Of a stretch of DNA of 62,655 nt, positions 1 through 62,655 are shown in pieces. The number at the start of each line of letters is the position of its first letter. Position 1 is the first letter of the stretch. The notes under the pieces were generated by a model. It saw only the letters and a list, made by a program, of their open reading frames with translations. It was not told the DNA's origin and made no database searches. Source of the stretch: an uncultured Pseudomonadota bacterium. Lineage in GTDB: Bacteria > Pseudomonadota > Alphaproteobacteria > RF32 > CAG-239. The translations under genes were made by a program, and so were the position numbers. Where the stretch lies: assembly GCA_902763905.1 (NCBI GenBank), contig CACWUA010000002.1, positions 6,075 through 68,729 of the forward strand. Reading direction: 5' to 3'.

Positions 1-1
1 G

Positions 2-1867
2 TTTGATTTATTGAATATACCGGATCCTACTTTTTTGTTTGTGGGCGGTGCAATTTATGTGGCCGGAATTTTCATCAGTTTAAGCGTCGGTATGTATTTT
101 GTTGACGCATCACTGAGACTTGGAATTGCCATTATATTTATGCCGATAAGCATTGCACTTTGGCCGTTTCCGCCGACAAGCAGCAAATTTATGGATAACT
201 TAAATACTATCATTCGCAACGGGTTATTGTTTGCATTGATGTCGGTCGGAATTTCATTTGCACTGTGTCTAATCAACGCCGGTCTTTTTGAAAGCGGAGA
301 TGCTGCTTTCTGGAGTGCGATTGAGCATCAGCAAACCGAGCTCTTAAGTGAGAACTTTTCCTTTTTCAGCACCCATATTTTGGTTGTGGGGTTTAGTTTG
401 ATTTATGGTTTCAGACTTTTAGAATCCAGCGTCAATAATTATTTGAACGCCTTTTTCAGCGACCCGATGTTCGGCAGTCAAAGTCCGATGAATCAAATGG
501 GCACACAAGCTTTCGGCATGGTCTCACAAAATATGGTAAAACCGGCAGCAAGTCTTGCCAAAGACATAGCAATGCACCAAACCGGACGGGCTATCGGCGG
601 TATCGGAACGGCAATCTCGGCAGAGGGACGCGGCAAAATTGCCGGAGGAATAAAAAATGTATACAGCGGTCTCAAAACTTTTGCCAAGAATCCGCGGCAG
701 ACATATAATCGAGCTATGACAATCGCTGGTAAAAAAGCTAATAACGCAATTCAAAGTGTCGGCCAAAAAGCCGAAAATGCAATTTTCGCAGCCGGTGAAG
801 GAGCTAAAAAGTTAGCTGACGGAATTTCGGCAATGGCTCCGATACCTCTGAGCGAGGATATTCGTCAAGACAGACTGCAGGGTAAATTGGAAAACGGTAA
901 ACGTCCGGTATTTGATGAAAATGCAGGTTTCCGCGGCAACAAAGGAATTAACAATAAAATCGACTATCTGACAAACAAATTCGGCAAATTTGCCCGAAAT
1001 AATATAGATGCAGTTACTCCCGCAGTGGGAAATTTCACTGAGAATGTGTTGGCGCATGGCGGCGGCGAAATAAATAATGCGGTGCGAACTGCGGAAGAAG
1101 GCGCAAAACAATGGACCGCAGATAAAATTGCCGACACTATCAATCAGGTAAACGCCATGCGCGGCTCCGAAGATCCGGCAGTTAGCGGCGATCAGATACG
1201 AGCCGGTGTACGCAATGCCGGTATCATTGCCGGTGCTAAATTAAATAAATTAGCGGATAAGGTAATCGACAGCGACATAGTTCAAGGCTTTAAGGAAGGT
1301 GCTGCAACTGCAGACCAAGCTCCAATTACACTTGAACCTTTGGCAGCTGTTTCGGCTCCGTTCAAAGCAGTGCGGCATCCGATTAAAACTTGTCGCAAAC
1401 TGGCTAATCTCAGTGAATCCTTCAACAATTATAAGCAAACATTGAAAGAGAATAGAGAGCTCACTACGCCGACAACCGGCAATAGCGGAGGTAATGCTCA
1501 ACAAACCCTAGAAAACAGCCAACCGAGCCGTACCCGTATCATTATGAAAGCTACAGGACAGATTGTAGCGCGCACTGCAAAAGATGTAGGTTCAAAAACA
1601 GAAAATGTCGGAAAATATGCAGCAAAAGCCGGCAAGGCAACAGCTAAACCAATCGGCAAAGCTGCCGGAAAGACAGCAGATGCTTTGGGTAAAACCTTAC
1701 AAGATTTCGGAGCATGGCTCGGCGACAATTCAAAAAGAGGCGGACAACGGGATAACAGTTCATGGCTGGAAAAATGGAACAGTGTTGTTGCCGATAAAAA
1801 GGCAAGAGAAGAAGAGGCTCAGGAAGAGAGCGATTACTACCGCGAGATGAGTGGCGGAGATAATTAA
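2..1867 (+). CDS. TrbL/VirB6-like type IV secretion inner-membrane protein, 5'-partial (frame open to window edge), with a long Gly/Lys/Ala-rich C-terminal extension
   Basis: Several N-terminal TM helices. The motif YFVDASLRLGIAIIFMPISIALWPFPPTSSKF follows the VirB6 pattern (DA..l...la.gP......F..T......W). It is paralogous to LIDCVLQLCIAAALVPCAIAAFAFKITEKYIKIIW in the next gene. No stop codon lies between position 2 and the TTG at 11. Confidence 0.6.
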   Translation, partial: FDLLNIPDPTFLFVGGAIYVAGIFISLSVGMYFVDASLRLGIAIIFMPISIALWPFPPTSSKFMDNLNTIIRNGLLFALMSVGISFALCLINAGLFESGDAAFWSAIEHQQTELLSENFSFFSTHILVVGFSLIYGFRLLESSVNNYLNAFFSDPMFGSQSPMNQMGTQAFGMVSQNMVKPAASLAKDIAMHQTGRAIGGIGTAISAEGRGKIAGGIKNVYSGLKTFAKNPRQTYNRAMTIAGKKANNAIQSVGQKAENAIFAAGEGAKKLADGISAMAPIPLSEDIRQDRLQGKLENGKRPVFDENAGFRGNKGINNKIDYLTNKFGKFARNNIDAVTPAVGNFTENVLAHGGGEINNAVRTAEEGAKQWTADKIADTINQVNAMRGSEDPAVSGDQIRAGVRNAGIIAGAKLNKLADKVIDSDIVQGFKEGAATADQAPITLEPLAAVSAPFKAVRHPIKTCRKLANLSESFNNYKQTLKENRELTTPTTGNSGGNAQQTLENSQPSRTRIIMKATGQIVARTAKDVGSKTENVGKYAAKAGKATAKPIGKAAGKTADALGKTLQDFGAWLGDNSKRGGQRDNSSWLEKWNSVVADKKAREEEAQEESDYYREMSGGDN

Positions 1868-1873
1868 AACGGG

Positions 1874-4800
1874 ATGAAGAACATGAGAAAAACGAGGTTA
1901 CATATCTTTTTATTTGTATTTTTACTCGGTATCATTATGCCGATTATTCCGGTGTATGCAGCCGGCGGCTCGTGTAATAATTCATGTTCACAAATCAGCG
2001 GAGAATGTATCGGAACCAGAGCTCTGCAAGGTTCTGCCTCCGCTAAAATGGATATTAATTGCTTAAAAACTAATTCTGCTTCTTCATGTTTTAATCAGGT
2101 GCCTATTACCGGCGGTACCGGCAACTACAATTCCATAGGTAAACGCTCGGCAACACGCAACCACTACGGAACGGATATCGGTGCCAGTAATACAACATCG
2201 GCTAAAGCATTAGCAGCAGCTGAAGGTGAAGTGATATACGCACGCTCAGCCGGCGGAAGCGGTTGGACTATTGCCATAAATCACAAAAAAAAATGTCAAG
2301 GCGGCGGTGGGTATCATACGGTTTATCGTCATTTATACAAGATGTTCGTCAGTGCAGGACAGCATGTTAATGCCAATGAACCTATAGGAATCGTCGGCGG
2401 TTCCAATACCGTCAACGGTAAAGTCTGCCATAATCCGGCTCAGCTGAAAAACTGTGCCAGCGGTTGGTATGCCATTCACTTGCATTTTGAATTATTGGAT
2501 GGTGAACTCTGCGGTAGCTGCAGCACACAGGCAACTCCATCAAAAGTTATGTCTCCATATTGCAAAGATGCGGCTGTGTTATGCGGCGGTTGTCCGGACA
2601 GTCAGGAATGTAAATGCACCAAAAATTGCGGCGGTGCTTTTGGTGATTCCAGTAACAGGCAAGCTCCGGGAGAGAGTTCAGGCGGCACAGCAGCGGGAGA
2701 AGTCAGTAGCAATACCAATGCGGCAGATGTTGATGCTTATTCCTCCAAAAACTGTTCGTTCGGCGAGTTTTTAGATTCAAAAAGCTGCGTATTCTGCAAC
2801 CTGTTTAAAATTATGTATAACTCCGCCAGCGATATCGCGCTTAATGCCAATAATCGGCTGGCAGCACCGAGTAAAAGTCTGGTTATTATCGGATTTTTGA
2901 TTTGGATGGCTATTTATTTCTTAAAACAAATAGGTACTTTTAATGCAACTTCTACCGGAGAGATGCTTAAAGGACTTTTGTTCCAAGGTTTCAGAGTTGC
3001 CGTTGTGGTGATTATTCTGAGCAATGCCATACCGCAGGTAATGAATTTGACGCTTAATCCGGTAATGCAGACAGGGTTTAACTTTGTGCAGAATCTCAGT
3101 GCGTTTTCCGTATGTGATGATTCACTCGATTATATGCAGAATATCAAAGGATTCGAAGACAGCTATTCCGCAGAAAACGCCGACGGAGGTCTGCCAAAAA
3201 ATGTAGGAAAAGCGATTATATGCAGCATGAAAAATCTTGAAGATGCTACCGGAACACTGATGGCTTTAGGCGACTACTCAATATGTTTAGCACACACCAA
3301 ACATACTATCAAAGGTGTAATCCCAAGCTTAGGCTATTTGTCAACCGGCTGGTTTTTATGGATAGTCGGAGCCATATTATTGATGGCATTTCCTTGGTGC
3401 CTGATTGATTGTGTTTTACAGTTGTGCATTGCCGCAGCACTGGTACCTTGCGCCATTGCCGCTTTTGCCTTTAAGATAACAGAAAAATATATTAAAATAA
3501 TTTGGTCATTCTTTATGAATGCCATGTTTAACTTTGTGTTTATGGCTTTGATTGTTTATATAATTAATTCGCACTTAAAAGATTGGATCGGACTTTCTAA
3601 GTTATCGCAAGCAGAACTGGACGAGCATGAAGATATCTTTATCAGCGGCGGAATCATCGATATGCTCGGCGGTCAATTCGAGGGTTTGGCTTGGTGGGGA
3701 ATCGGTGCCATCAAGCTCTTGGCAATGTGTTTCTTCTGTTGGACATTCTTTGATGAGGCCGCGGCTATGGCAAAGAAATTCGCCGATTCACCGGGATTGG
3801 GTGGTAGTAAAGGTATCGGTCGTATGGTTGGCGGAACCATGGCGCAGATGGGAACAAATTGGGGTTTGAAACCGGCAGCACATTATACAAAAAAAGGTGC
3901 ACAAGCTCTCGGTCGCGGCATCAATTCGGCCGTGGGTAACAGTTTCCGCAGCGGAGTAAACCATGGCAAAGGTTGGGCAATGGATAAACTTGCTAAACTG
4001 GGAATAGCTCAAAGCCAAATAACAAAAGATCCCAATACAGGCAAAACTATCGGATATAAGAGTAAAATCCGCTTGTTCGGACGCGATATTGAACGAAATG
4101 TTACACGCGATGAGAATGGTAACTGGTCATTGGAAAAAACAACGCATAAACGCTCGGCTATTGATAAAGCTTTTGAGGTAGCACGCGATGAAAACGGTAA
4201 TATAATAAGAGATGAAAACGGAATTCCTCAATATTTATCCCGTCAGCGTGTACTGGGTAAGGTCATCGGATATGAGGCGATGACGGCAACCCGCGATAAA
4301 AACGGTAATCTGCATTATGCAACCGCAGACGGCAGCCGTTCATTTACCATGGATAATGATGGCAAAATACTTTCATACAAAACACCTTATACCGGAACTC
4401 TGCTTGGCGGTTCACACGAAAAAACCGATCGTCATCAATACGGTACAACCAAAACCATCAATGATGGTATCTCCAAAACAGTTCAAAAATTTGATGCCAA
4501 CGGCAACCTTGTCAGTTCAGATACCGAGTTCAAAAATGTCAGCGCCTCTCATTTGATGAACACCGACGGAACACTTAATGCCAACTCTTTCAACCAAATT
4601 AAGAATGGCGCTAAAGATCCGGAAATTGCCGCTTCGTATATGGTGGAAGAGGTTATGAAGAGCCGCGGTATCGGACTTCCGGAGACTTTTGCCGACAGAA
4701 AAGTCAACCTTAATAAAGATGGTTCATTTACGATTGTTCAGAAAAATCTGGTAGGGCATGACAAGATATCCAATAAGGATTTGTACGAAACCAGAGTAGT

Positions 4801-5917
4801 CAATGCTCAAATCATAGGCAATCAGATGGTTATAGATATTACGGCCGTCGACTCCAGAGGCAACATTACACATCATAAGAGTAACGGAATCCAAACAATT
4901 GTCGATAAATTCACATTGCAATACGACAGCAAAGGCAATATTATGAAGGACAAAGACGGCAAATCGTTGTATAAATACAGCAGCTCGCCTCAATTCTCCG
5001 AATATTGGCAAAAACGCAACAGCGGTCATGGTGTGATTGCTACCGATGGCAGCTGGGGTAATCTGGTTGATCGCGACAAGGCTATGGCCGGATTTACACA
5101 ACAGGATTTTGATAAACATCTGGCTAAGATTAAGCTCAAAGAACTGCGGCGAACCAACACCCTGAATAAATTCAATAAAGAATTGAATACTAAAGGTTCG
5201 CAAATCAATGTTTTGAACGGACTGTTGAGCAAAGAAAGTTTGTCGCAGGCAGAAGTGATGGCACTCAATGCCGGATTGATGTCGACAATCGGAATTCCGC
5301 TTGATGAACTGCCGTTCGGAGCAAGTTCAGAAGATTTGCTATCGCCACTAAATGATACGCGTGATAAGAATAATCTGCCGTATACAGATAAACCAAACGA
5401 CGAAGATAAACCGGCAAATCCTCAGGAAGATGAGCGCAAGCGTCAGGAAGAGTCTAAAGCAAAAGCTGATGAAGATGAGCGCAAGCGTCAGGAAGAGTCT
5501 AAAGCAAAAGCTGATGAAGATGAGCGCAAGCGTCAGGAAGAGTCTAAAGCAAAAGCTGATGAAGATAAGCTTAAACGTGAAGCGGAAAAAGAAAAAAATC
5601 AGCGTTTGAAAGAAGAACATGAAGTACATGAAGTTGAAAGAGCACAGTTAGCCAAAGAGCGCGATAAAATCACGCAGCAATTCGCTGAAGTTGAAAAACA
5701 ACTGACTGCCGCCAAAGCTGCTGTCGATGCCGTCGGTCTGACCCCGCAGGAAAAACAACAGGCAGAGGCTGCTTACAATGCCTTATTAAGACAATCAAAT
5801 GCCCTGCGCGAAACTTTGGCGCGCAACAGAAAAGCAAACAATGATGCCATAAATGACTATAACTCTCGCGCCGATAAGCATAACAGTGAATTAGGAGATA
5901 AAAAGAAGTTGCAATAG
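1874..5917 (+). CDS. Giant (1347 aa) fusion protein: signal/TM anchor, M23 (LytM) metallopeptidase domain, Cys-rich linker, VirB6/TrbL-like polytopic domain, long repeat/coiled-coil C-terminal extension
   Basis: M23 Zn-ligand motifs HYGTD (His codon at 2162) and HLHFEL (2477). Multi-TM block around aa 330-620 with the VirB6-like F..T......W motif. C-terminal 3x EDERKRQEESKAKAD repeat. Starts 7 nt after the previous stop. Confidence 0.65.
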   Translation: MKNMRKTRLHIFLFVFLLGIIMPIIPVYAAGGSCNNSCSQISGECIGTRALQGSASAKMDINCLKTNSASSCFNQVPITGGTGNYNSIGKRSATRNHYGTDIGASNTTSAKALAAAEGEVIYARSAGGSGWTIAINHKKKCQGGGGYHTVYRHLYKMFVSAGQHVNANEPIGIVGGSNTVNGKVCHNPAQLKNCASGWYAIHLHFELLDGELCGSCSTQATPSKVMSPYCKDAAVLCGGCPDSQECKCTKNCGGAFGDSSNRQAPGESSGGTAAGEVSSNTNAADVDAYSSKNCSFGEFLDSKSCVFCNLFKIMYNSASDIALNANNRLAAPSKSLVIIGFLIWMAIYFLKQIGTFNATSTGEMLKGLLFQGFRVAVVVIILSNAIPQVMNLTLNPVMQTGFNFVQNLSAFSVCDDSLDYMQNIKGFEDSYSAENADGGLPKNVGKAIICSMKNLEDATGTLMALGDYSICLAHTKHTIKGVIPSLGYLSTGWFLWIVGAILLMAFPWCLIDCVLQLCIAAALVPCAIAAFAFKITEKYIKIIWSFFMNAMFNFVFMALIVYIINSHLKDWIGLSKLSQAELDEHEDIFISGGIIDMLGGQFEGLAWWGIGAIKLLAMCFFCWTFFDEAAAMAKKFADSPGLGGSKGIGRMVGGTMAQMGTNWGLKPAAHYTKKGAQALGRGINSAVGNSFRSGVNHGKGWAMDKLAKLGIAQSQITKDPNTGKTIGYKSKIRLFGRDIERNVTRDENGNWSLEKTTHKRSAIDKAFEVARDENGNIIRDENGIPQYLSRQRVLGKVIGYEAMTATRDKNGNLHYATADGSRSFTMDNDGKILSYKTPYTGTLLGGSHEKTDRHQYGTTKTINDGISKTVQKFDANGNLVSSDTEFKNVSASHLMNTDGTLNANSFNQIKNGAKDPEIAASYMVEEVMKSRGIGLPETFADRKVNLNKDGSFTIVQKNLVGHDKISNKDLYETRVVNAQIIGNQMVIDITAVDSRGNITHHKSNGIQTIVDKFTLQYDSKGNIMKDKDGKSLYKYSSSPQFSEYWQKRNSGHGVIATDGSWGNLVDRDKAMAGFTQQDFDKHLAKIKLKELRRTNTLNKFNKELNTKGSQINVLNGLLSKESLSQAEVMALNAGLMSTIGIPLDELPFGASSEDLLSPLNDTRDKNNLPYTDKPNDEDKPANPQEDERKRQEESKAKADEDERKRQEESKAKADEDERKRQEESKAKADEDKLKREAEKEKNQRLKEEHEVHEVERAQLAKERDKITQQFAEVEKQLTAAKAAVDAVGLTPQEKQQAEAAYNALLRQSNALRETLARNRKANNDAINDYNSRADKHNSELGDKKKLQ
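5426..5568 (+). repeat. Perfect 45-bp x3 in-frame tandem repeat (EDERKRQEESKAKAD) plus a partial fourth unit
   Basis: Units 5426-5470, 5471-5515 and 5516-5560 are identical at nucleotide level. Confidence 0.95.
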
Positions 5918-6055: not shown

Positions 6056-7030
6056 ATGGAAGAAATTATTTTCCCAAACCAAATAAGAATGCATCGCCGT
6101 ATTCATGGTGTACCGATGCAGGAGTTGGCTGATCATTTGGGGGTCAGTTTGTCTGCAATTTCCAAAATAGAGAAAGGCTATCGTCGCTTAAATCAAGAAC
6201 AACTGATTCAAGTTGCTGAGTTGTTGGACTGTTCTTTGCAGGATTTATACGTAAACGAACAAAATTCTCAGCAAGAAGTTGTTCAAGCATGGAAGCGTGA
6301 ACAGGAGCGTCGCAGTAAAATCAATCAGACAGCCGGTTTGAAAACGTTGGGTGCAGGATTACGTCATATTCGCACCAGCAAAGGCCTTACGCTGATTGAA
6401 GTTTCCGAACATGCTGATATGACATTGTCTGTATATCATCGTATAGAAATGGGACAACGAGAAGTTTCAGATAAGGAATACAAGAATATTGCCAAGGCTT
6501 TGTCGATGCCGCTGGAACAATTGAAAGCGGCTATTCAAAAACTTGATGCCGACGGACAGTTGGAAGACATTATTGAACACAACGATACGCGCTACAAAGT
6601 TTTAAACAATGCCCGTTATGCCAATTTGGGTGCGATTACTACTGACAATAATGATGATATTATGGTTCCGCTTTATGGAAACGGCAATGCCGAAGGAAAT
6701 ATTATTATAAGCAGATCCGGTGCATTAAAAGAAATTGCTTGTCCGAGTAATCTGCGTAATAAAAACGATATTTATGCCATAAATCTGTGCACACGCCGTT
6801 TGGGTTCGTTGCTTTCGAATCGCGCTATATTGTTTATTGATCCGTCCGAAGTTGTAAGTGCGGGGGATATTGCGCTCTTCTATATCAACGAAACAGAAAC
6901 CAAATTGCTGAGCATACGAGAAGATGAAAAAGGTCAGCTTTATGGTTTGCGTTGGAACCCTGAAGAACGCGTTAATTTCAGCAACGAAGATTTAACCAAA
7001 ATTCACAAGGTTGCGGTTATTAATCTTTAA
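6056..7030 (+). CDS. Transcriptional regulator with two XRE-type HTH domains and a possible S24/LexA-like C-terminal domain
   Basis: Two HTH_3-like segments (QELADHLGVSLSAISKIEKGYRRLNQEQL and LIEVSEHADMTLSVYHRIEMGQREVSDKEY). The C-terminus RLGSLLSNRAILFIDPSEVVSAGDIALF...TKLLSI resembles the G.SM.P...GD.v.v...vKrl pattern of cI/LexA. Confidence 0.6.
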   Translation: MEEIIFPNQIRMHRRIHGVPMQELADHLGVSLSAISKIEKGYRRLNQEQLIQVAELLDCSLQDLYVNEQNSQQEVVQAWKREQERRSKINQTAGLKTLGAGLRHIRTSKGLTLIEVSEHADMTLSVYHRIEMGQREVSDKEYKNIAKALSMPLEQLKAAIQKLDADGQLEDIIEHNDTRYKVLNNARYANLGAITTDNNDDIMVPLYGNGNAEGNIIISRSGALKEIACPSNLRNKNDIYAINLCTRRLGSLLSNRAILFIDPSEVVSAGDIALFYINETETKLLSIREDEKGQLYGLRWNPEERVNFSNEDLTKIHKVAVINL

Positions 7031-7115: not shown

Positions 7116-9080
7116 ATGGCGGAGGCAGCGGAACAGGAAAATCCGACACAAGGAATCAGCTCGGAGTTGGATGAAGCAGCAGAATTCAGAGGCAGTAAAG
7201 AAGATCAGGAAGATTTACTGCTTACGGCTCAGCGTTATCTTAATATTTTCCATCAAATTCATATATTCAAAGCTGCAAAACGCAAAGAGTTTGATCAGCA
7301 ATTGCTTGAAATGCCTGAAAAAATTCGGCGTATATTGGCTATGTTGCCAGGGGGCCGCATTCTTTTGGAGCATATTGCGGAATTAGAGGCCCAACAAGGT
7401 ATTTTTAATTCTTCGCTGAGCAGTTTGATTGAACAAAAGCCAGCTTCGTCCGAGACTCCTGCAACAACTTCGGCAGCATCTGCGGTACAAGTTGTGCCTA
7501 CGGTGGTCAGTGCGCCGGTTGAACTCGGTAATGATTTTACTAAAGCATTAACGGAATCTTTCAGTACTTATTCGCAAAATTTACAAAAACTCAATGCCAA
7601 TATTCAACAAATTGCCGTACAACAGCAAAATTCTCAGATTAGCTCACCAACAGGGGCAAATATCAACATTGCCGACACCCTCAGCACTTTGTTAAAAGAA
7701 AATTCACAACAACAAATGGATGTTCTCAAAGATTTTGGCCAAACACTCTCCAAAACCATATTGGAATCGCAAAAAGAATTTATATCTTCGCTGCTTGATA
7801 AACAAAAAGAGAGTCAACCCCAGCACATTGTAGAAAAAGTCATTGTTCAGAGTGCAGCGCCGGCTGCTGAAGTGGTGAGTGCCGCACCAACCTTTGCTCA
7901 GCCGGTTGTTTCACAAACGGAAACGAAAGAAATCAACCCGACCTCGATTCAGGAAATAATCACAAAGCAGAATATTTCTCAATTTTCCAATGTCCGTGAG
8001 GCTTCGGCTAAAATTGATAATGTAAAACCGACTGAAAATAGCAAAAATGTTACCAAAGAAAATAATATTGCTCAAAAAATCTTACCGGAGATAAAATCAG
8101 AACAGAAGAATATCGAGCAGGAAGCTGCGTCTGTTCAAGTTTCTGATACGATCGAAATTGCCCTACCTAAAATCGAATCGAGCGTAAAAGAGACCGTGCC
8201 GACGAATAGCGGCAAAAATGACAAGAAGAAAGCCGAAAGTCAATACAAGAATAAAGAAAATAAAGAAAATAAAGAAAATAAGACAATCGATACAGTCTTG
8301 TCTCATCAGGAAAACAGTGTGCCTCATTTGCCTAGTGAAAAGAATAGAAAACAAGAAAAATCTTTACCGAAAAAAGATACTAAACAATCGCAGCAAAACG
8401 ATAAAAAAGGTGTTACCGAGGAAAAGAATAAGTCCTCTGACAGAAGTGTCGATATTGAAAATGAGCCTATTGATGAAGTGGTTGATATAGATATTGATGC
8501 CTTATTTGATGACGCATTTGCACCTAAGGACAAGAGCAAAAAAGACAATAAACCGGCAGATGCGCTCAGTGATGCGTTTGGTGTTGTCGAGCAGCCTAAG
8601 GACAAGAGCAAAAATAAAAAAGCAGAGTCGGAACCTGTGGTGTTACGTAATACCGGCTATGATTCGGCAATGCTTAAAATTAAAGAAGCACTTAATTCAA
8701 CCGATTCCGTGTCTCTTGATGACTTAAATATTACTCCGGTATCGTTGTCATCAGGGAAAGAAGAAAAAACAAACGATACTTTCAATGAATCTCCTGATTT
8801 GGAAAAAGTGTTTTCAGATTTTGCCGATGATAATGATAACAACACCCATTTGCAAGATATTGCCGATGATGACGAATGGGAATATGTTGATGAAAATGGG
8901 AATCCGATTGCACCGTCGGATAACGATGAATGGGAATACGTTGATGAAAACGGGAATCCGATTACACCGTCGGATAACGATGAATGGGAGTACGTTGATG
9001 AAAACGGAAATCCGATTACACCGTCAGATAACGATGAATGGGAATACGTTGATGAAAACGGAAATGTAATATCGTCTTAA
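7116..9080 (+). CDS. Acidic, low-complexity 654-aa protein with a conserved helical N-domain and four C-terminal DNDEWEYVDENGNPI(T/A)PS repeats; no signal peptide or TM
   Basis: Long ORF; repeats seen directly; also an NKENKENKENK microrepeat and duplicated PKDKSK segments. Confidence 0.7.
   Translation: MAEAAEQENPTQGISSELDEAAEFRGSKEDQEDLLLTAQRYLNIFHQIHIFKAAKRKEFDQQLLEMPEKIRRILAMLPGGRILLEHIAELEAQQGIFNSSLSSLIEQKPASSETPATTSAASAVQVVPTVVSAPVELGNDFTKALTESFSTYSQNLQKLNANIQQIAVQQQNSQISSPTGANINIADTLSTLLKENSQQQMDVLKDFGQTLSKTILESQKEFISSLLDKQKESQPQHIVEKVIVQSAAPAAEVVSAAPTFAQPVVSQTETKEINPTSIQEIITKQNISQFSNVREASAKIDNVKPTENSKNVTKENNIAQKILPEIKSEQKNIEQEAASVQVSDTIEIALPKIESSVKETVPTNSGKNDKKKAESQYKNKENKENKENKTIDTVLSHQENSVPHLPSEKNRKQEKSLPKKDTKQSQQNDKKGVTEEKNKSSDRSVDIENEPIDEVVDIDIDALFDDAFAPKDKSKKDNKPADALSDAFGVVEQPKDKSKNKKAESEPVVLRNTGYDSAMLKIKEALNSTDSVSLDDLNITPVSLSSGKEEKTNDTFNESPDLEKVFSDFADDNDNNTHLQDIADDDEWEYVDENGNPIAPSDNDEWEYVDENGNPITPSDNDEWEYVDENGNPITPSDNDEWEYVDENGNVISS
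8868..9070 (+). repeat. 54-bp x about 3.8 in-frame tandem repeat encoding D(D/N)DEWEYVDENGNPIxPS
   Basis: TGG codons at 8877 and 8931 fix the 54-nt period; the units are near-identical. Confidence 0.9.
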
Positions 9081-9160: not shown

Positions 9161-9655
9161 ATGACAGAGATTACAAATAATGCTGTTTCAAAGGAATCCT
9201 TATGGTATGTGGATAATTATATAGTACTGATTGACTATTATGATCGAACAATATCGCGAATTGCGGCACGTTGTGTGCGTATGGGTAATATTGCAATGGA
9301 AGAATATCCGCATTATTCATATATTCTCGATGTTTTGGAAGAAATATGCGATACCGGCAATTATATTTTGGAGCATGACGAATTACATCCTTATGTTGAG
9401 AAAAAGATTGCCGGAGGAATTGAAGCTCTGCGCAGAAATCTGTCGTTATACCAACAGGAACTCATAAATAATCAAACGCCGGAAATGTTGCGTACCGATC
9501 CGAACGAAGCAAAAAAATTAAATGAAGTTATGAGTAATTTCGATAAGGCTACGGATCCTACGGTTGGAGCCGGTATGAATATTGATGATTTAATGAATAA
9601 ACTAATGGCGGAAAATGCCATTGAAACCGGTGAAAATTCCGGTAATAAGCAATAA
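9161..9655 (+). CDS. Hypothetical acidic cytoplasmic protein (164 aa)
   Basis: ORF in an operon-like array; no recognisable motif. Confidence 0.5.
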   Translation: MTEITNNAVSKESLWYVDNYIVLIDYYDRTISRIAARCVRMGNIAMEEYPHYSYILDVLEEICDTGNYILEHDELHPYVEKKIAGGIEALRRNLSLYQQELINNQTPEMLRTDPNEAKKLNEVMSNFDKATDPTVGAGMNIDDLMNKLMAENAIETGENSGNKQ

Positions 9656-9671
9656 TGATAGGATACAGACC

Positions 9672-10985
9672 ATGAAGAAGACGCTCATTTCAGGAATATA
9701 TGTTTTTTCAGCGTTCTTAATAGTAACCATATCCGGTTGCATGAGTAGCAGTGAGGTTGTTCAAATGACACCGGAAGCTCAGGCTAAACAGCTTAAGTAT
9801 GAGTATGAGCACAACATGCAGTTGATGGAAGCGGAACCTGTACATAAAGATCCACAAGATCCGTTTATGATCCGAACAACCGAAGGCGCGAACGCTTTAG
9901 ACTTGGAAACACCTTTGCGTTGTAATGTAAACTGGGAAACGCAGCAAATGATTTTGACTTTGCCTTATGTTCGCTCGGCATTTAAGTTGGAAAGAAACGG
10001 GCAAAATGATGCGTTGCCGCGATTTGATGTTACCGGTTTTTCGTTTGATATGATGCCGGCAGAGCAGGCATTGGTGCGCCTGACAAAAGAGGCCGGAATC
10101 CGAGTTTCTTCCGCTGACGGGCCATATACCAGCATTTCCGCACAAGATTTGAAAGGTGAATTTTCCGAGGTTATAAAAATGATTGCCGAATCGGCGGATA
10201 TCTATTACACCTATAATGCAAAAGATAAAATTTTGACCTTAAGCCGCCGTGTTAATATGACACTTTATACTCCGCATTCTCGTCCGATTATATTGGGACT
10301 GATGGATGTTATTCGCGGAGCCGGCATTACTAATATTACAACCAACTGGGCTGATTATTCTATAACGTTTGATGCTGATGTTGAAACGCAAAAAAAGATG
10401 ATGGAGCTGATTAAGATTTTTGAAAACAGTCCAACTTTGGTTGCCTATGATGTCAGTGTGTTCCGCTTATATCCAAATGATCCGACCAGAGATATAGAAT
10501 GGAAAGAGATGCTGAATGCTTTTGATTTCGGTGCTATTACCACTGCGCAAACCGGCGTTATCGGACGCGTTTTAACCACAACCAATGATATATCCGTTGA
10601 AAAACTGCGCCAATTTTTAGGCAGTCAGGCGCGAATTGAAACCGTATCAGAGGGTAAGTTTGTAGTTCCGAATTTATGGCTGGCTCGTTTTGATATCGGC
10701 AAATGCAGTCAACCGGGGGCGGATCCGTATGGAATGTCCGTATTAGCTAAAGCATCGGTTGAGAAAAACAACGAAATATTTACGGATGTTACGGTTGAAG
10801 TTACCGATGGTCAAGTCACTAAGTTCAATATCCGCAATAAACTGGGCGAAAACTTTTTGATTATCGGTATGCCGAATGAATTGTTTGGGGTTCATTCACC
10901 TAAGTCAGAAACAATTATATTTATGGTTCCGCGTATCATCAGAACCTTAAAGACCAGTGAAACAATTAAAAATAAGATAAAATAA
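9672..10985 (+). CDS. Outer-membrane lipoprotein with secretin-like architecture (degenerate secretin C-domain)
   Basis: ATG at 9672 follows AGGA. Signal peptide with lipobox (FLIVTISG|C). The C-terminal ...GENFLIIGMPNELFGVHSPKSETIIFMVPRIIRT resembles the secretin C-terminal consensus (viGG..iP.lG.LF....eL.i.vtP.ii). Confidence 0.45.
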   Translation: MKKTLISGIYVFSAFLIVTISGCMSSSEVVQMTPEAQAKQLKYEYEHNMQLMEAEPVHKDPQDPFMIRTTEGANALDLETPLRCNVNWETQQMILTLPYVRSAFKLERNGQNDALPRFDVTGFSFDMMPAEQALVRLTKEAGIRVSSADGPYTSISAQDLKGEFSEVIKMIAESADIYYTYNAKDKILTLSRRVNMTLYTPHSRPIILGLMDVIRGAGITNITTNWADYSITFDADVETQKKMMELIKIFENSPTLVAYDVSVFRLYPNDPTRDIEWKEMLNAFDFGAITTAQTGVIGRVLTTTNDISVEKLRQFLGSQARIETVSEGKFVVPNLWLARFDIGKCSQPGADPYGMSVLAKASVEKNNEIFTDVTVEVTDGQVTKFNIRNKLGENFLIIGMPNELFGVHSPKSETIIFMVPRIIRTLKTSETIKNKIK

Positions 10986-10996
10986 GGGAGGATGTT

Positions 10997-11614
10997 ATGG
11001 AAGAAAATCAGAGCATGCCTAAAGTTCGTAAACTGAGAAAAATAAAAAGATCCAAACCACAAGAACAACCGCTGTCTTTTGGAACCCCGACAAAAGTTAA
11101 TTATTCTCAACCGGATTCATTTTTGGAAAAGGCATATAATCAGGAGTCCGAGGAAAACACCGTATTTGACAATAATGGCGATGCGGAGAACATCCATTTT
11201 ATTACTGAAGAAGAATTAATACCGCAAACTCAAGATTCAATATCCGTACTATTGCGCAATAAAACCGTGTTTATGTTGCTGATAATTGCAGGACTTATCG
11301 GGGCTATAACGGGATATCTGATGGCACCTTCAGCCAACGCCCCTGCTGCACGCGGGCTTGATGGTGTTGTTATCAACTCGGATATACCGGCAGGTCGCAG
11401 CCGTTGCGGTATTGCCGAGCCGCATCAGGGATGCGTTTTGTATATCATGAACCCGAAAAATCAGGAAGTCCAAGGCAAGTATTTCTATAATACGGCTGCG
11501 AAATGGACCAATCGCGAACGTTATCTAATTGAGACCAGCAATATGCACTACAGTTCTACACGGATTAAGCCGGGATATATTGCACAAATAAATATTCCGC
11601 CGCTTACATATTAA
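10997..11614 (+). CDS. Bitopic membrane protein (cytoplasmic N-tail, one TM, about 95-aa periplasmic domain with 2 Cys)
   Basis: GGGAGG RBS 5 nt upstream. TM segment VFMLLIIAGLIGAITGYLMAP. Starts 11 nt after the preceding gene. Confidence 0.6.
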   Translation: MEENQSMPKVRKLRKIKRSKPQEQPLSFGTPTKVNYSQPDSFLEKAYNQESEENTVFDNNGDAENIHFITEEELIPQTQDSISVLLRNKTVFMLLIIAGLIGAITGYLMAPSANAPAARGLDGVVINSDIPAGRSRCGIAEPHQGCVLYIMNPKNQEVQGKYFYNTAAKWTNRERYLIETSNMHYSSTRIKPGYIAQINIPPLTY

Positions 11615-27825: not shown

Positions 27826-27851
27826 TTATCCCCCTCTTGAAATCAATAATT

Positions 27852-28255
27852 GAAGGCAATCTATAAGCCGAGTTCTGTACACAATTTGCTTTATCTCTAA
27901 AGACAAAGATTTTGTGCGATAGCTATTCATCTACGCCAAACGTTACCGCTTAGCTGGTGCGACCCACCTCTGGAGCGAGTCGGAAACATCTCGTATAGTT
28001 TAATAAAGACATTAAACTCTCCTAATTTGGTCTTACATCAGATAGGGCTTGCCTTGCCATGCGCATTACTGCACACGCGGTGAGCTCTTACCTCGCCTTT
28101 TCAACCTTACCGCGATATACGCGGCGGTAATTTTCTGCGGCGCTTTCCCGTGGATTACTCCAGCCGGACGTTATCCGGTATCTTGTTTCCGTGAAGCCCG
28201 GACTTTCCTCATCTTCGGATTTTCCTTTCCGAGACGCAGCTATCCGATTGCCTTC
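27852..28255 (-). ncRNA. rnpB: RNase P RNA, bacterial type A
   Basis: Minus strand carries GAGGAAAGTCCGGGC (P4 5' strand, 28197-28211) and ACAGAACTCGGCTTATAG (P4 3' strand). P1 closes with GAAGGCAATC (28246-28255) pairing to GATTGCCTTC (27852-27861). Confidence 0.9.
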
Positions 28256-42085: not shown

Positions 42086-45000
42086 TTATCTGTTGTTTAA
42101 TTTTTTCATGTTCCCCATTTCATCAAGTGTCCGTCTTTTCGAAGCTTTATTCTCATCGCGAGAAGTTTCCGAAGTGGTTCTGACCAAAGCATCTTCAGCC
42201 GAGTCAATAAATTTTTCGAAGCTGAAAACTTTCTTATTGGCCTCTACCGTTTTACCGTCAATCACCGTTGTAGTGCGCTGATTAGGATTTGTTACATCAA
42301 CTTCGTTATCTTTGCGGAAGAAAGCATCACGAATAATTTTAATCAGCTTGGAAGTCGGACGATGAGTTTTATATTCATCTTTCAATTCCTGAGAAGTCGG
42401 CCACAAAATTGCCTTATCTATTTCTTCTTTGGTCATCGATTTACCCGCATTCTTAAGCTCGGCTTGTTTTTGCAAAACTTGCTTATAGCCAATCGGATCA
42501 AGAATATCGGCATTGCTGCGCTGAGCATACGAACCATTAAAGTTGGATACATTATCGTTAATTATTTTATCAATTTTCCGGCGACGTTCTTGTAAGAACT
42601 CGAGCATCGGTTTACCACCTGCTGCAACCCGTTCTTTCTCAACATTTTCATAATACGCCTTATAACCGGCATCAAAGGTCATCGGATTAACAGTCAATGT
42701 CTTCATTTTCCCGTCTTCGCCTCTTACTTTCTTTTCTGCCGGATTATAACCATGAACCATCCAATATTCCTCATCCAGATATTTACGCTCTTCCGGAGTC
42801 GGAACTTTTATTATAACTTTCGGCGGAGTCTTATCCACCGGCGGAGTTTTATCCGTAGGCGGAGTCTGCACCGGCGGAGTTTTATCCGTAGGCGGAGTCT
42901 GCACCGGCGGCGGAGTTTGTGATGTTTTCACACCGATAATTTTATCGGCAATCGCACCAATCCGTTTTTTCATTCCGCTGAAGGCGCCTTTTACCGGTTC
43001 CCAATAACCAAGACCAAATAATTTTTCACCGCCGTGATTGATTACCTCACCTACTTTGCCCGCAACCATTGTAAAGTGTTTACCTATATCGTATCCGGCA
43101 TCGGCATTTTCATTGAATGACTGAACAGGATGAGCTTCCGGACCTGTGCCAAACAAAGTAATCTTACCGGCATCATTGACATTATCGTCAATCTGCATAC
43201 CGATAACATTGTCAATTTTTGTAAGCATACTCGCCAAACCGTCAGGATTTGAGGATTTGCCGGTAGAAACCACCTCTTTTAAGGCATCAATATAATTCAT
43301 ATCCGAACCATCCGGCATTTTCATCGATAAATACTCGCCTACGGTTGTACCTACCGGAACATGCAACACATTAACAGCATAGTCGGTATTAATCGGAGTG
43401 TCCGGTTTCGGAGCCAAATAAGCCAACTGTTCAAATTTGTAACTCAATACATCCGTATTAGGTATGTAATCAGGATTTTGCGGATTATTGGCAATATCGG
43501 TATAAAATTGTCTGTCATCACCGATTGCCTGTGTAATAGCAGAACGCAGATTGGTTACCGCATCCGAAGAAACCACATTCGGATCAGACGGATCTTGTAA
43601 ATCAGGAGCAACGTGAAAACGATTCAAAAATTCGCTGAAACGAGGATCATCTAAGCGATTTGTGGCATGCTGATGTTCAATATTGCTGTAATTATGCGAA
43701 TCCGGACCTTGTTCTACGTGTCCCGGAGTGTCCGGACCTTTTTCCTGCCAAGCCGGTGTAACTCCGATCATTGAGCCGATGTAGCTTCCCAATCCGCCGC
43801 CCACAGCAATAGCAGATACTTTTTTCAGTGACTGCAACAGTGCTTTACGTTTGGTAAGACCATGTTGGCGAGCTTCTTTATAGGTTCCGTATCCGGCAAC
43901 AGCCAAGCATCCGGCACCTAATGCTGCAGCTACCGGAACATTTCCCGTTATCAAACAAGCACCGGCGGCAAATCCGAGTGTTGATGCAATATTGGTTGTC
44001 GCATACGGTTGCTTGGTCAAAAATTCGCGTAATTTCGGCTTTTGATTGTTTGCCTTAGCTTCCTTTTTATAATTTTTCCAATTCATATACATACCGACAC
44101 CGGCCATGGCCATACTGGTAACGCCTGCTACCATCGGCAACGCTTTTGTTACCGCGACGGCCGGAGCAAGGGCCGTCAATCCTAAAGCGCTTGCAGCGTG
44201 TGCACATCCGAGCGTGGCACCATAAGTTAGCAACTTCTGTGCCAAACTGGCACCTGCCGTCCATACCGCGGTCTTAAACCAATTGACGCTGTATTCTCCT
44301 TTTTCATCAAAGCGTGTTCCTTTGCGAGCATCATATTTTTCAATCGGGGCATACATTCTTTTCAGCAATGCATCTTTCGGATTATCAATGTGGTCTTCAC
44401 TTGCCAAACGTCCGATAATACCCATTGTATCATTGATTGAAAGCTGAGTTGCGGCATTAAATCCCCGAATCGACATATGTAGTGGTCTCTCCGGATCTGC
44501 CATACGAGCTTTGAACTCATTTAAATATTTTTCATCCGTAAATCTATCCGGTTCAATCAGTGCATTATGAACGTTTTCTTCCGCTGTTGCCCAAGCAAAC
44601 GCTTGAATTTTTAGTCTATCCTGAAATGCAGCCTGTAAATCTTCATCTGATATTGATTTAACATCAGCCGACATATTCTCGATAATGGTATTATTGCGGG
44701 CAAAATCAATCATTGTTTGCAATTGACTGTTTGGTTTCACGTACATACCCTGCTGCCAAGTCAATGATTCCTGATTTGTCTGCGGATTAATAAATTGCGG
44801 TACGACCTGCCCTTTTTCATCGTAAAAACGAATATTACTCAAGAATTTGTTTGTCTCATCATCTAAACCTATATTCTCGAAACGTTTGGTTAATTCTTGA
44901 TGATTTTTACGCACCTGATTAATATTATCTTTGGTTATATCGGCAATTCCGCGATCTGTGTCATAGTCCGCAATATCCATTTTCAATTTTTTATCAACGG

Positions 45001-45292
45001 CATCAATTTTTGCTTGTTGCGGCTCCGAAGCATACGGACGGCGAGCAGCCAACATTTCCTTGTAACCCTCATAAATATCGGCGATGTTAACTCTGTCGTC
45101 ATAATTAAAATTATCGCGAACAATATTTCGAATACCGGTATAATATTCATCGGTGAGCCTATCCATGCGTGCGGCGATAATATCCTGACGTTTAATCAAA
45201 TCGTCGACTTCATCTCCTTTGGCTTTGGCTATTTCTTCGCCGTAGTAATTATATACCTGTGTCAAAATTGTCGGCGGTACAACTTTCATCAT
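42086..45292 (-). CDS. Large (1068 aa) hypothetical protein with no signal peptide, a central cluster of Gly/Ala-rich hydrophobic hairpins and a Pro/Thr repeat
   Basis: Long ORF. Hydrophobic block around aa 345-510. Contains TPPVQTPPTDK repeats. Confidence 0.7.
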   Translation of the reverse strand: MMKVVPPTILTQVYNYYGEEIAKAKGDEVDDLIKRQDIIAARMDRLTDEYYTGIRNIVRDNFNYDDRVNIADIYEGYKEMLAARRPYASEPQQAKIDAVDKKLKMDIADYDTDRGIADITKDNINQVRKNHQELTKRFENIGLDDETNKFLSNIRFYDEKGQVVPQFINPQTNQESLTWQQGMYVKPNSQLQTMIDFARNNTIIENMSADVKSISDEDLQAAFQDRLKIQAFAWATAEENVHNALIEPDRFTDEKYLNEFKARMADPERPLHMSIRGFNAATQLSINDTMGIIGRLASEDHIDNPKDALLKRMYAPIEKYDARKGTRFDEKGEYSVNWFKTAVWTAGASLAQKLLTYGATLGCAHAASALGLTALAPAVAVTKALPMVAGVTSMAMAGVGMYMNWKNYKKEAKANNQKPKLREFLTKQPYATTNIASTLGFAAGACLITGNVPVAAALGAGCLAVAGYGTYKEARQHGLTKRKALLQSLKKVSAIAVGGGLGSYIGSMIGVTPAWQEKGPDTPGHVEQGPDSHNYSNIEHQHATNRLDDPRFSEFLNRFHVAPDLQDPSDPNVVSSDAVTNLRSAITQAIGDDRQFYTDIANNPQNPDYIPNTDVLSYKFEQLAYLAPKPDTPINTDYAVNVLHVPVGTTVGEYLSMKMPDGSDMNYIDALKEVVSTGKSSNPDGLASMLTKIDNVIGMQIDDNVNDAGKITLFGTGPEAHPVQSFNENADAGYDIGKHFTMVAGKVGEVINHGGEKLFGLGYWEPVKGAFSGMKKRIGAIADKIIGVKTSQTPPPVQTPPTDKTPPVQTPPTDKTPPVDKTPPKVIIKVPTPEERKYLDEEYWMVHGYNPAEKKVRGEDGKMKTLTVNPMTFDAGYKAYYENVEKERVAAGGKPMLEFLQERRRKIDKIINDNVSNFNGSYAQRSNADILDPIGYKQVLQKQAELKNAGKSMTKEEIDKAILWPTSQELKDEYKTHRPTSKLIKIIRDAFFRKDNEVDVTNPNQRTTTVIDGKTVEANKKVFSFEKFIDSAEDALVRTTSETSRDENKASKRRTLDEMGNMKKLNNR
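42821..42920 (-). repeat. 33-bp tandem repeat encoding (TPPVQTPPTDK)n
   Basis: GGCGGAGTTTTATCCGTAGGCGGAGTCTGCACC occurs twice, with partial flanking copies. Confidence 0.85.
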
Positions 45293-45319
45293 CTGCTCAT
45301 TATTGGCAGTTCTGACAAT

Positions 45320-46480
45320 TTAGTCGGCAAACAAAGCATTAAATTCATGACTATCTTTATCCGACAAAGATGCAATAGCATTCTGCGCCGCGGTGTATAC
45401 TTTACTTTGATCTCGTAATTCCTCTGCCGAAAGTTGCGGATTAATTTTTCCCATTTCAAGCAGAATATTATATTTTAGTCTATCGAATTTGGCTTCGTTT
45501 TTATCGGAATTATCTTCAAATACACGTGCGTCTTGCACAATAAACTCATCTTGTTTGTTGTTGCCATTATCATTACCACCGTGATTGTTATCATTATCCG
45601 TCAAGGTGTCAACACTTTGTTTATTTTCATTTTCCGGCTGTTGGTGCGGTATCACACTAACGTTAAGCGTTTCCTCTTTTTCTTTTTGTTCGGTCGCCGG
45701 ATATATCACACTAACGTTAAGCGTTTCCTCTTTTTCTTTTTGTTCGGTCGCCGGAGATATCACGCCCACGTTAAGCGTATTTTCCGCATTCTCTACATTG
45801 TCATATTCTCCGGCAAGCCATGCCACATAGTCAATATTTTCTTCGAGCTTTTGCATCCGTGCAATCACTTCTGCCCGTCTTTCCGGAGTCATATTGTCAT
45901 AAACGTTCCGTAATTTATTGATATCAAATCTCTCTGCTTCAAGCTCTTGTCTGATAACAGCTTGCATATCGTCTGTGCCCAGCTCATTAAACGCCATGCC
46001 GTATTTTTCCTGCGCCAATTTATCTAATTCATCACTCCGATGACGTAAAGTCGTATTGCGCAAAAAATCATAAAACTCGATATTGGCGAGTTCGTATTGC
46101 TCACGAATATTTGTCAGACTTCTTTTTTGCAAATCGTTTGTAATTTGTTCAAGAGAAACACCTTTTTCTTTGGCATCATAATTCTTTACGGAAATATAAA
46201 TCTGTTGAGCCGGAGAAAGCTGATCAAAACTGCGTATAGTACTGAGTTCTGTGGCAGTCAATGCTTCCATATCTTCCTTGTTGTTAGCCTGTCTTATTTC
46301 TTCCAAAAACTCCTTATCCGCATCGCCTAAATCATCAGTGTGACTTTTAAAGCTCATCAGCAGTGCAGTCTGCTCATAGTCCGCAATTTGCGACAAGTTT
46401 GCAATTCCGAATTCTTTTTGAATAAAGTCTAAAAATTCTGCATTATCCTTAACATCGGAAAAATTATTATAAATAGCCAT
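45320..46480 (-). CDS. Hypothetical acidic 386-aa protein with three TLNV(S/G)VI.PATEQKEKEE repeats
   Basis: AGGAGAA RBS, strong promoter upstream, 27-nt gap to the downstream large gene. Confidence 0.7.
   Translation of the reverse strand: MAIYNNFSDVKDNAEFLDFIQKEFGIANLSQIADYEQTALLMSFKSHTDDLGDADKEFLEEIRQANNKEDMEALTATELSTIRSFDQLSPAQQIYISVKNYDAKEKGVSLEQITNDLQKRSLTNIREQYELANIEFYDFLRNTTLRHRSDELDKLAQEKYGMAFNELGTDDMQAVIRQELEAERFDINKLRNVYDNMTPERRAEVIARMQKLEENIDYVAWLAGEYDNVENAENTLNVGVISPATEQKEKEETLNVSVIYPATEQKEKEETLNVSVIPHQQPENENKQSVDTLTDNDNNHGGNDNGNNKQDEFIVQDARVFEDNSDKNEAKFDRLKYNILLEMGKINPQLSAEELRDQSKVYTAAQNAIASLSDKDSHEFNALFAD
45651..45790 (-). repeat. 54-bp x about 2.6 tandem repeat
   Basis: ATCAC anchors at 45651, 45705 and 45759. 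Confidence 0.9.
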
Positions 46481-59418: not shown

Positions 59419-59996
59419 ACATCTGTGTATTCGGCGCTTCTTCCGAGCGCATTGATCCCGCCTGTTTTGCCGACGCGCAGGAGCTCGGGGCGCTGATTGC
59501 CCGGGGCGGGCACCGTCTCGTATTCGGCGCGGGGCGGGAGGGGCTGATGGGCGCCTGCGCCCGCGGCGTACTGCAGGAGGGCGGCAGGCCGCTCGGCATC
59601 GCGCCGCGCTTTTTTGACGAGCCCGGCGTCCTGCTGCACGACGGCTGCGAGCTTCTTTTCACTGAGACCGTGGCCGAGCGCAAAAGTCTCATGGAAGAGG
59701 CGGCGGACGCCTTCATCGCCCTGCCGGGCGGAATCGGAACCTATGAGGAATTCTTCGAGGCGCTGACGCTCAAGCAGCTCGGCTGCCACCAAAAGCCCAT
59801 GGCGCTGCTCAATACCCTCGGCTGCTTTGACGCCCTCGACGCCCTCCTGCGCGGTACGGCGGAGCGGGGTTTCATGAGCGCGGAAGTATTGGGACTGTAT
59901 GCCCTGTGCAACACGCCGCAGGCTGCTCTCGATCACGTCACACGGCCTGTGAGCGCGCCGTCCGCGCCGCGGCCTTTGAGCGAATACAGCCGATAA
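59415..59996 (+). CDS. LOG-family (TIGR00730) nucleotide phosphoribohydrolase
   Basis: GAGREGLMG and LPGGIGTYEEFFE motifs. GGAGG RBS at 59402-59406. GC-rich codon usage. Confidence 0.85.
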   Translation: MNICVFGASSERIDPACFADAQELGALIARGGHRLVFGAGREGLMGACARGVLQEGGRPLGIAPRFFDEPGVLLHDGCELLFTETVAERKSLMEEAADAFIALPGGIGTYEEFFEALTLKQLGCHQKPMALLNTLGCFDALDALLRGTAERGFMSAEVLGLYALCNTPQAALDHVTRPVSAPSAPRPLSEYSR

Positions 59997-60104
59997 CGCC
60001 CCCCGCCTGACCTTGTTTTCCGTTTTTTTCTTTATGGGCTATTGAATTGAGCTTGTTTTTTTGATAGTATAGGTTATTAAAAAAAAGAAAAGCTGAAAAC
60101 GAAT

Positions 60105-62114: not shown

Positions 62115-62655
62115 TGGAGAAAGCCATGGATACGCAGGAACTGAAAAACAATATACAAGACCCCGACGCTCAGTTTGAGGCGCTTGTCCAGAAGATTGAG
62201 GACGGTACCCACAGCATGGACATGGGCCGCATCCGCGCCGCCTATGACATGGCGAAGATGGCCCACGCCGGTCAGAAACGGAAGGACGGCTCCCCCTATG
62301 TGACGCACTGCATCGCCGCCGCCGACATCAGCGTGGACATCGGTCTGGATGAGGATTCCATCATCGCGGCCCTGCTGCATGACGTGATCGAGGACACCAG
62401 CCTCACCCACGCGGACATTGCCAAGCAGTTCGGCCCCGCGGTGGCCGATATTGTGGAGGGTGTCACCAAGCTGACGCGGGTGCAGTACACCAGCAAGGAG
62501 GACGAGCAGGCGGAAAACCTGCGCAAGATGCTCCTTGCGATGGCAAAGGACATCCGCGTGGTGCTCATCAAGATCGCCGACCGCCTCCACAACATGCGCA
62601 CCATGGCCTACCAGACGCCGGAGAAGCAGAAATCCAAGTCGCTGGAGACCATGGA
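62114..62655 (+). CDS. relA: Bifunctional (p)ppGpp synthetase/hydrolase RelA/SpoT, 3'-partial (not in the supplied ORF track)
   Basis: My own translation from the ATG at 62114 (TAATG overlap with recJ): MEKAMDTQ...HAGQKRKDGSPYVTHCI...ALLHDVIEDT...ADRLHNMRT, which is the HD hydrolase domain. It runs off the window. Confidence 0.9.
   Translation, partial: MEKAMDTQELKNNIQDPDAQFEALVQKIEDGTHSMDMGRIRAAYDMAKMAHAGQKRKDGSPYVTHCIAAADISVDIGLDEDSIIAALLHDVIEDTSLTHADIAKQFGPAVADIVEGVTKLTRVQYTSKEDEQAENLRKMLLAMAKDIRVVLIKIADRLHNMRTMAYQTPEKQKSKSLETM

Follow-up and report, generated by a model that had tools for sequence, protein, structure and literature searches.

Can the enzyme that opens the cell wall for a secretion machine be built into one of the machine's own membrane subunits? 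Machines that span the bacterial envelope must breach the peptidoglycan sacculus without lysing the cell, and the textbook solution of diderm type IV secretion systems (T4SSs) is VirB1, a separate soluble lytic transglycosylase that is often dispensable. The question is raised by a gene at the start of a 62,655-nt stretch of DNA (the window) from an uncultured alphaproteobacterium (assembly GCA_902763905.1, contig CACWUA010000002.1, positions 6,075 to 68,729 of the forward strand), in which an earlier note had recognized an M23 peptidase fused to a VirB6-like channel subunit and had proposed that the fusion opens the sacculus. We confirm the fusion, and after several corrections its interpretation is supported: the protein appears to belong to a set of six VirB6-like inner-membrane proteins encoded in tandem in a chromosomal T4SS islet, and its tethered M23 domain would open the sacculus locally, a reading that we hold with little more than even confidence.

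The gene, termed paralogue f, extends in the open reading frame (ORF) list from an ATG at 1874 to 5917 (1874..5917, +) and encodes a 1347-aa protein with five parts in order: a signal peptide, the M23 domain, a Cys-rich linker, a polytopic membrane domain of ~330 aa and a Cys-free tail of ~700 aa. The start given previously stands, but the end (3740) does not, as the interval 1874-3740 covers aa 1-622 only; the protein size it implied was therefore too short and left out a large C-terminal extension. The M23 (LytM) metallopeptidase domain (aa ~78-210; 2105..2503, +) was delimited by Pfam, NCBIfam and PDB sequence matches. Pfam Peptidase_M23 (PF01551) matches aa 96-184 with 55.6 bits (cut-off 28.7; E=6.1e-15), in NCBIfam the region is closest to MepM, ShyA and Pgp3, which are peptidoglycan endopeptidases of Gram-negative bacteria, and a Pgp3-type M23 was among the matches when the region was searched against PDB sequences.

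Both motifs quoted in the earlier note as a complete LytM/M23 signature are present (H97-Y-G-T-D101 and H202-L-H204-F-E-L), together with a central H153. The HxxxD motif (H97 and D101, Zn ligands; 2162..2176, +) has both residues in 46 of the 47 full-length orthologues, and the HxH motif (H202-L-H204; 2477..2485, +) is kept in all 47. Directly before the latter lies a ~16-residue insertion bracketed by C185 and C194, which accounts for the end of the Pfam match at aa 184; a phmmer alignment that took H186 as the first His of the HxH motif was rejected, as the HLHFE consensus follows the insertion, at aa 202-206. In a 49-sequence alignment, H97, D101, H153, H202 and H204 are all kept in 46 of the 47 orthologues with an M23 domain, the exception being a D101Y replacement. 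The Zn ligands and the catalytic His are thus intact, and their retention across 32-99% identity suggests selection on catalysis. No VirB1-type soluble lytic transglycosylase (SLT, GH23-like) catalytic domain was found in the protein with Pfam or NCBIfam, the domain being M23.

A Sec signal peptide is predicted from hydropathy and charge at aa 1-29 (1874..1960, +; MKNMRKTRLHIFLFVFLLGIIMPIIPVYA, followed by AG). Its 19-residue hydrophobic core (aa 9-27; Kyte-Doolittle peak 2.61) comes after a K/R-rich start (four K/R, no acidic residues) and fits the signal or anchor sequence proposed before; the segment ends in VYA ahead of AG, where the cleavage site is inferred. This N-terminus is conserved in the orthologues, those devoid of M23 included. 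The linker (aa 211-310; 2504..2803, +), defined by its Cys positions and rich in Gly/Ser around aa 255-290, contains 11 Cys within aa 213-308, close to the dozen first estimated; CGSC and CGGCPDSQECKCTKNC are among them, and many are invariant or at least 90% conserved in the orthologue alignment. The distribution of Cys is strongly asymmetric, with 13-23 in the N-terminal ~300 aa of every M23-bearing orthologue and 0-2 in the 350-1700-aa tail.

Hydrophobic segments were located at approximately aa 335-354, 366-386, 490-532, 546-567 and 604-626; the segment at aa 490-532 forms one long helix in the AlphaFold2 (AF2) model, giving five helices in all. The charges are consistent with a five-helix layout with the N-terminus out and the C-terminus in: loop 387-489 (103 aa, three conserved Cys) is predicted outside, the K-rich loop 533-545 inside, the acidic loop 568-603 outside, and the segment after the last helix (13 K/R in 94 aa) inside. 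The VirB6 proteins of Agrobacterium and Brucella have a periplasmic N-terminus and a cytoplasmic C-terminus, and pairs of VirB6 helices can be read as single long helices (PMC6536674). On the strength of the signal peptide, the Cys asymmetry, the charge layout and this reported topology, we predict a tethered M23 domain in the periplasm.

The membrane domain (aa ~311-640; 2804..3793, +), whose periplasmic loop (aa 387-489) comprises ~100 aa, is supported as VirB6/TrbL-like by its modelled fold, by transitive homology and by paralogy. An AF2 model of aa 283-705 (pLDDT 73.7, pTM 0.64) was compared with the PDB using Foldseek; chains of TrwI/VirB6 from R388 (7o3v, 8rt9 and 8rtd) made up nine of the top 13 matches (prob 0.75-1.00, TM 0.51-0.66 per target; prob 1.00 and TM 0.62-0.66 for the top ones), and no other PDB match of the model exceeded TM 0.3. 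A hidden Markov model (HMM) built from orthologues of paralogue f alone matches a 1180-aa protein of another lineage (locus L060; loci of relatives are given by number) with E=2e-81, and this protein passes the Pfam TrbL threshold (32.9 bits against 25.9). The domain is also paralogous to the five genes directly upstream, of which a, b and c each match TrbL (E=3e-4 to 9e-4); the target is the last of six tandem VirB6-like genes, or of five units if the split pair d/e is counted as one. PF04610 (TrbL) is precomputed on 13 proteins from the search with the paralogue profile, mostly of the paralogue-c type, as well as on members of L062 and L063, and one relative is named 'type IV secretion system protein' by NCBI. 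VirB6 proteins have an essential, conserved Trp in their transmembrane-cytoplasmic region; a possible counterpart is W508 (in FPW), which is invariant in the f family, and paralogues a and b carry a conserved ACWPFK. The VirB6-like transmembrane domain of the earlier note is thus borne out, by way of the AlphaFold model it had called for and of intermediate homologues, albeit without a direct Pfam match. The NCBIfam search of the target left the membrane domain unassigned, tblastn of the core against 72,556 plasmids gave no match, and TrbL-positive relatives used as queries returned one marginal match only (E=0.06), to an Erythrobacter 'type IV secretion system protein'.

Hydrolase domains are not confined to paralogue f. 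An N-terminal Hydrolase_2 (SleB-like) domain is present on paralogue d or e, with Pfam E-values of 2.4e-13 for L058 and 3e-6 for L001, and the SleB-like segment recurs on d or e in at least 28 of the 49 species, the nearest relative of the window included. The periplasmic loop of a 1661-aa VirB6-like protein in L060 (13629-18614) contains two inserted domains, one SLT (aa 1163-1287, E=2.4e-14) and the other GDSL-like (SGNH-type; aa 928-1091; E=1e-6, slightly under the Pfam cut-off). VirB6-like proteins have thus acquired, on their periplasmic parts, three unrelated classes of hydrolase (SleB-like, SLT with GDSL-like, and M23), and this recurrence strengthens the sacculus-opening idea and forms its strongest indirect support. 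A neighbour of the 1661-aa protein has a 470-aa N-terminal region with 48 Cys.

The fusion is widely conserved. A search of 5.8 billion proteins recovered the full-length architecture in almost all of 72 protein clusters (32-99% identity), and a scan of species-representative genomes yielded 49 loci, all from uncultured Alphaproteobacteria, with the M23-VirB6-like fusion conserved in about 46 species. The sources comprise the rumen of goat, sheep, deer, yak and reindeer, along with horse, rabbit and the human gut; the closest relative (L007, 94% identity) is a goat-rumen metagenome-assembled genome (MAG). An exhaustive search returned 1359 representatives at 50% identity (E<=0.001), common in rumen and human-gut metagenomes, the best 150 matches all belonging to the clade of the window; likewise, the profile of all paralogues recovered only clade members from the 5.8-billion-protein set. 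Public annotations of members read 'M23 family metallopeptidase', 'DD-metalloendopeptidase' or 'hypothetical' only, and no fusion of VirB6 with a hydrolase is described in the full-text literature searched; the architecture thus remains without a described example in that literature.

The link to a T4SS comes from a relative. In L063 (GC 0.36), a homologous gene set adjoins a full-length VirB11 (TIGR02788, E=8e-40) and a 1888-aa VirB10 (NF038091, E=3e-27) at L063 14868-18746 (-); the regulator beside the array is 62% identical to that of the window and the conserved downstream genes are 37-60% identical. The array is thereby connected with a P-type T4SS, though only through gene neighbourhood in a relative. 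The giant VirB10 also shows a weak YD-repeat match upstream of its VirB10 domain.

The comparison with an rvh-type system drawn in the earlier note, where that type was assumed, holds for the tandem array of oversized, divergent VirB6 paralogues but not for virB3-virB4, which were not found directly upstream of the array; a related contig shows a ~300-aa gene and a divergent rRNA operon there. Further marks of rvh systems are Rickettsiales ancestry and the lack of VirB5 and, in some lineages, of VirB1. As for the statement that rvh systems do without VirB1, it is correct for Wolbachia wMel, for whose rvh T4SS VirB1 is stated to be absent, but not for Rickettsia, in which virB1 has been identified (Gillespie 2009).

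In the mechanism that we propose, the N-terminus would be exported by the Sec signal peptide and an active M23 Zn-endopeptidase would fold in the periplasm, with a probably disulfide-rich linker (~100 aa) connecting it to helix one of the VirB6-like domain. In the R388 system, VirB6 forms the base of the central stalk and is homo-pentameric. By homology with R388 TrwI/VirB6, the VirB6-like domain may lie on the central axis of the machine, where the periplasmic stalk has its base, so that the tethered M23 domain would cut peptide cross-links only where the apparatus crosses the sacculus, taking the place of VirB1 with no need of a free lytic enzyme. The SleB-like domain on the split paralogue d/e would probably cut glycan strands alongside it, and the ~700-aa Cys-free tail is probably cytoplasmic. 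A bolder version, in which units a, b, c, d+e and f form a hetero-pentamer with SleB-like and M23 domains as a two-enzyme drill, perhaps acting also on the wall of a contacted cell, seems to us improbable.

Several observations weigh against a wall-opening T4SS subunit. None of VirB4, VirB8-11 or VirD4 was found in the 62-kb window or in the 10-kb flanks of the 49 loci. The target has no match to Pfam TrbL (PF04610) at E<=0.01, only three of 20 orthologue cores match it at E<=1 (best E=0.075), sequence profiles of the membrane domain retrieved no VirB6 from the PDB and only noise, and the Foldseek E-values, though specific, are marginal (6.7e-3). Furthermore, in three close species (L009-L011) the signal peptide runs directly into the Cys linker, a clean loss that makes the M23 domain dispensable in this sublineage, and the outgroup orthologues (L062 and L063) never had it. 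The M23-less sublineage does retain the SleB-like domain.

The same M23-less proteins bear on whether the fusion could be an artefact of assembly or a frameshift that joined two genes, one of the possibilities that the earlier note had named as fatal to its proposal. We reject it and consider it practically negligible: full-length orthologues from 49 species-level MAGs each have one uninterrupted ORF, in independent goat, sheep, deer, yak, reindeer, horse, rabbit and human assemblies, and the 72 clusters agree. The variants of L009-L011 keep the same signal peptide and linker, which excludes a merger of two genes and, together with the outgroups, indicates that M23 is a modular acquisition within one gene. 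Nor does a non-catalytic LytM factor of the EnvC/NlpD kind, which would bind peptidoglycan or activate another hydrolase, fit well, even though phmmer against the PDB also matches the EnvC LytM domain (E=3e-4) and NCBIfam gives a weak match to the amidase activator ActS (E=0.004). Degenerate LytM factors lack the Zn ligands and the catalytic His; here all are present and conserved, so a degenerate factor was rejected on the five catalytic residues of the orthologues, and we regard this explanation as very unlikely.

The two remaining alternatives concern what an active enzyme would do. As a weapon, the M23 domain would sit at the tip of the VirB6-like platform or be released from it and cut the wall of a contacted bacterium, in a killing, predatory or epibiotic T4SS. 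Its position N-terminal to a five-helix anchor, with no recognizable cleavage site or secretion signal, makes this unlikely in our judgement, as does the finding of no adjacent immunity-like gene; known X-T4SS effectors, moreover, are separate soluble proteins recruited via VirD4, although bacteria-killing T4SSs do deliver peptidoglycan-degrading effectors (PMC6536674). In favour of such a role are the hosts, uncultured gut and rumen Alphaproteobacteria of unknown lifestyle, the two types of hydrolase in the cluster, as often in polymorphic toxins, and the variable length and Cys-free tail of the family. Alternatively, the array could be a membrane scaffold outside any secretion machine that places wall hydrolases for growth, division or shape; in the clade of the window the array has neither an ATPase gene nor an outer-membrane core gene nearby and lies among housekeeping genes beside an rRNA operon and ATP synthase genes, and the best M23 matches include the housekeeping endopeptidases MepM and ShyA and the shape enzyme Pgp3. 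Against this stand the VirB10 and VirB11 genes that adjoin the homologous set in L063, and dispersed T4SS islets that include VirB6 arrays are usual among Rickettsiales (PMC2653234); we rate the scaffold as somewhat less likely even than the weapon. Local opening of the sacculus by a tethered M23 domain within a T4SS is accordingly the interpretation that we retain.

The part of paralogue f beyond the membrane domain contains a conserved β-rich C-terminal domain (aa ~710-1100; 4001..5173, +) with D-x-N-G-N hairpin repeats and no Cys. An AF2 model of residues 700-1110 shows a confident β-rich fold (pLDDT 87.5) with no structural neighbour in the PDB (TM <=0.15), and a sequence search of the tail against the PDB found nothing. 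The whole ~700-aa tail is free of Cys in the target and in nearly all orthologues; its charged C-terminal portion includes a 45-nt tandem repeat in 3.2 copies (5426..5570, +; EDERKRQEESKAKAD), identified with Tandem Repeats Finder (TRF) and by translation.

The array is ordered as a ~300-aa gene with a faint match to the α/β-hydrolase family, paralogue a, a two-helix protein of 62-103 aa, and paralogues b, c, d, e and f. The window begins within paralogue e, the 3' part of which (1..1867, +) is VirB6-like with a weak TrbL match (E=0.0023) and has its stop 6 nt before the target ATG. It is orthologous to L005 7949-9799 and L001 4302-6830 and covers no more than the C-terminal two thirds of the VirB6-like profile. 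Genes d and e (L007 6846-9994; L005 6765-9799; window 1-1867) are the two parts of a single VirB6-like unit, d comprising the first two core helices (profile ~13-124) and e the rest (~170-400), and the split is conserved across the clade. The protein of two hydrophobic helices at the start of the array (L005 3170-3385; L003 3060-3371; L063 814-1002), which in the clade of the window sits between paralogues a and b, is a possible VirB3- or VirB2-like subunit. Divergently beside the cluster, L058 has an rRNA operon (1-2058, -; 16S, two tRNAs and the start of 23S), and it is because of this adjoining operon that most contigs break upstream of the cluster. The 16S gene in L058 (554-2058) is complete and so suited to placing the clade.

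Downstream of the target, a double-helix-turn-helix (HTH, Xre-type) regulator (6056..7030, +; Pfam HTH_3, E=2e-21) is always found beside the array and is 62-84% identical in all relatives, outgroups L062 and L063 included. It is always followed by an acidic repeat protein (7116..9080, +) with 3.6 copies of a 54-nt repeat (DNDEWEYVDENGNPITPS), syntenic in relatives. Three conserved genes then travel with the VirB6-like array (9161..11614, +), encoding a 164-aa protein, a ~437-456-aa lipoprotein (lipobox ISGC) and a 205-aa bitopic protein; identity across the clade and outgroups is 52-86% (37-62% for the 205-aa protein). They are more conserved than the VirB6-like genes and accompany the array even when it is reordered (L062). 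None of the three proteins (164, 456 and 205 aa) has an informative Pfam, NCBIfam or PDB match, the PDB matches of the 205-aa protein being designed WRAP-T proteins only; all three are candidates for unrecognized T4SS parts.

The remainder of the window is of housekeeping type (ATP synthase, RNase P RNA, DnaK, ValRS, BamB, Der and others), and the bacterial class A RNase P RNA (27848-28255, -; 269 bits) confirms the chromosomal context. Two adjacent ORFs of 1068 and 386 aa (42086-46480, -) have no Pfam match and almost no Cys. G+C rises from ~0.42 to ~0.64 in the last 3.2 kb (59400-62655; a 193-aa ORF and RecJ), which could reflect a chimeric assembly join or a recent transfer.

The occurrence of three unrelated hydrolase classes in VirB6-like subunits points to the VirB6 stalk base as an organizer of wall opening, and fusions of this kind offer a natural, testable case of spatial control through tethering. 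They may help explain why some host-associated Alphaproteobacteria have four or five giant VirB6 paralogues, the extra mass of which would be, at least in part, enzymatic cargo. A large and hitherto unannotated family is revealed at the same time.

How does the protein relate to known systems? With VirB6/TrbL (A. tumefaciens VirB6; R388 TrwI, PDB 7O3V/8RT9), its only specific structural match, it shares the polytopic inner-membrane fold and a layout of periplasmic N-terminus, large periplasmic loop after helix two and cytoplasmic C-terminus. Canonical VirB6, however, has ~300 aa and no enzymatic domain, whereas the target adds ~300 aa (M23 and Cys linker) before the core and ~700 after it, and its own sequence similarity to the family falls under the Pfam threshold. 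Rickettsia has five oversized VirB6 paralogues (PMC2653234), and the Rickettsiales rvh genes (RvhB6a-e) resemble the present ones in forming chromosomal tandem arrays of divergent, oversized VirB6-like genes with variable flanks (PMC2653234). Both arrays belong to host-associated Alphaproteobacteria and have five units each if d/e is taken as one; unlike rvh, the target array has an rRNA operon upstream instead of virB3-virB4, and no peptidoglycan hydrolase domain in RvhB6 proteins is reported in the rvh literature examined.

Among dedicated wall hydrolases, Gram-negative VirB1 proteins are soluble SLT enzymes and their Gram-positive counterparts are membrane-anchored, both being separate from VirB6; PrgK of pCF10, for instance, combines LytM, SLT and CHAP domains and is membrane-anchored (PMC12857230). 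The resemblance to PrgK lies in a wall hydrolase that serves a T4SS, with a LytM/M23 domain and a membrane tether; the difference is that PrgK, a Gram-positive protein with just one anchor helix, is separate from the VirB6 homologue, whereas here the hydrolase lies within a VirB6-like subunit of a diderm. In FlgJ of Salmonella-type flagella, a rod-cap domain is fused to a muramidase, so that there too the sacculus-opening enzyme is borne by a structural component lying on the central axis of a machine that spans the envelope; machine, folds and bond cleaved all differ, and the parallel is an analogy only. Extended VirB6 proteins and wall hydrolases associated with T4SSs were thus both already known, and what is new is an extended VirB6 that carries such a hydrolase.

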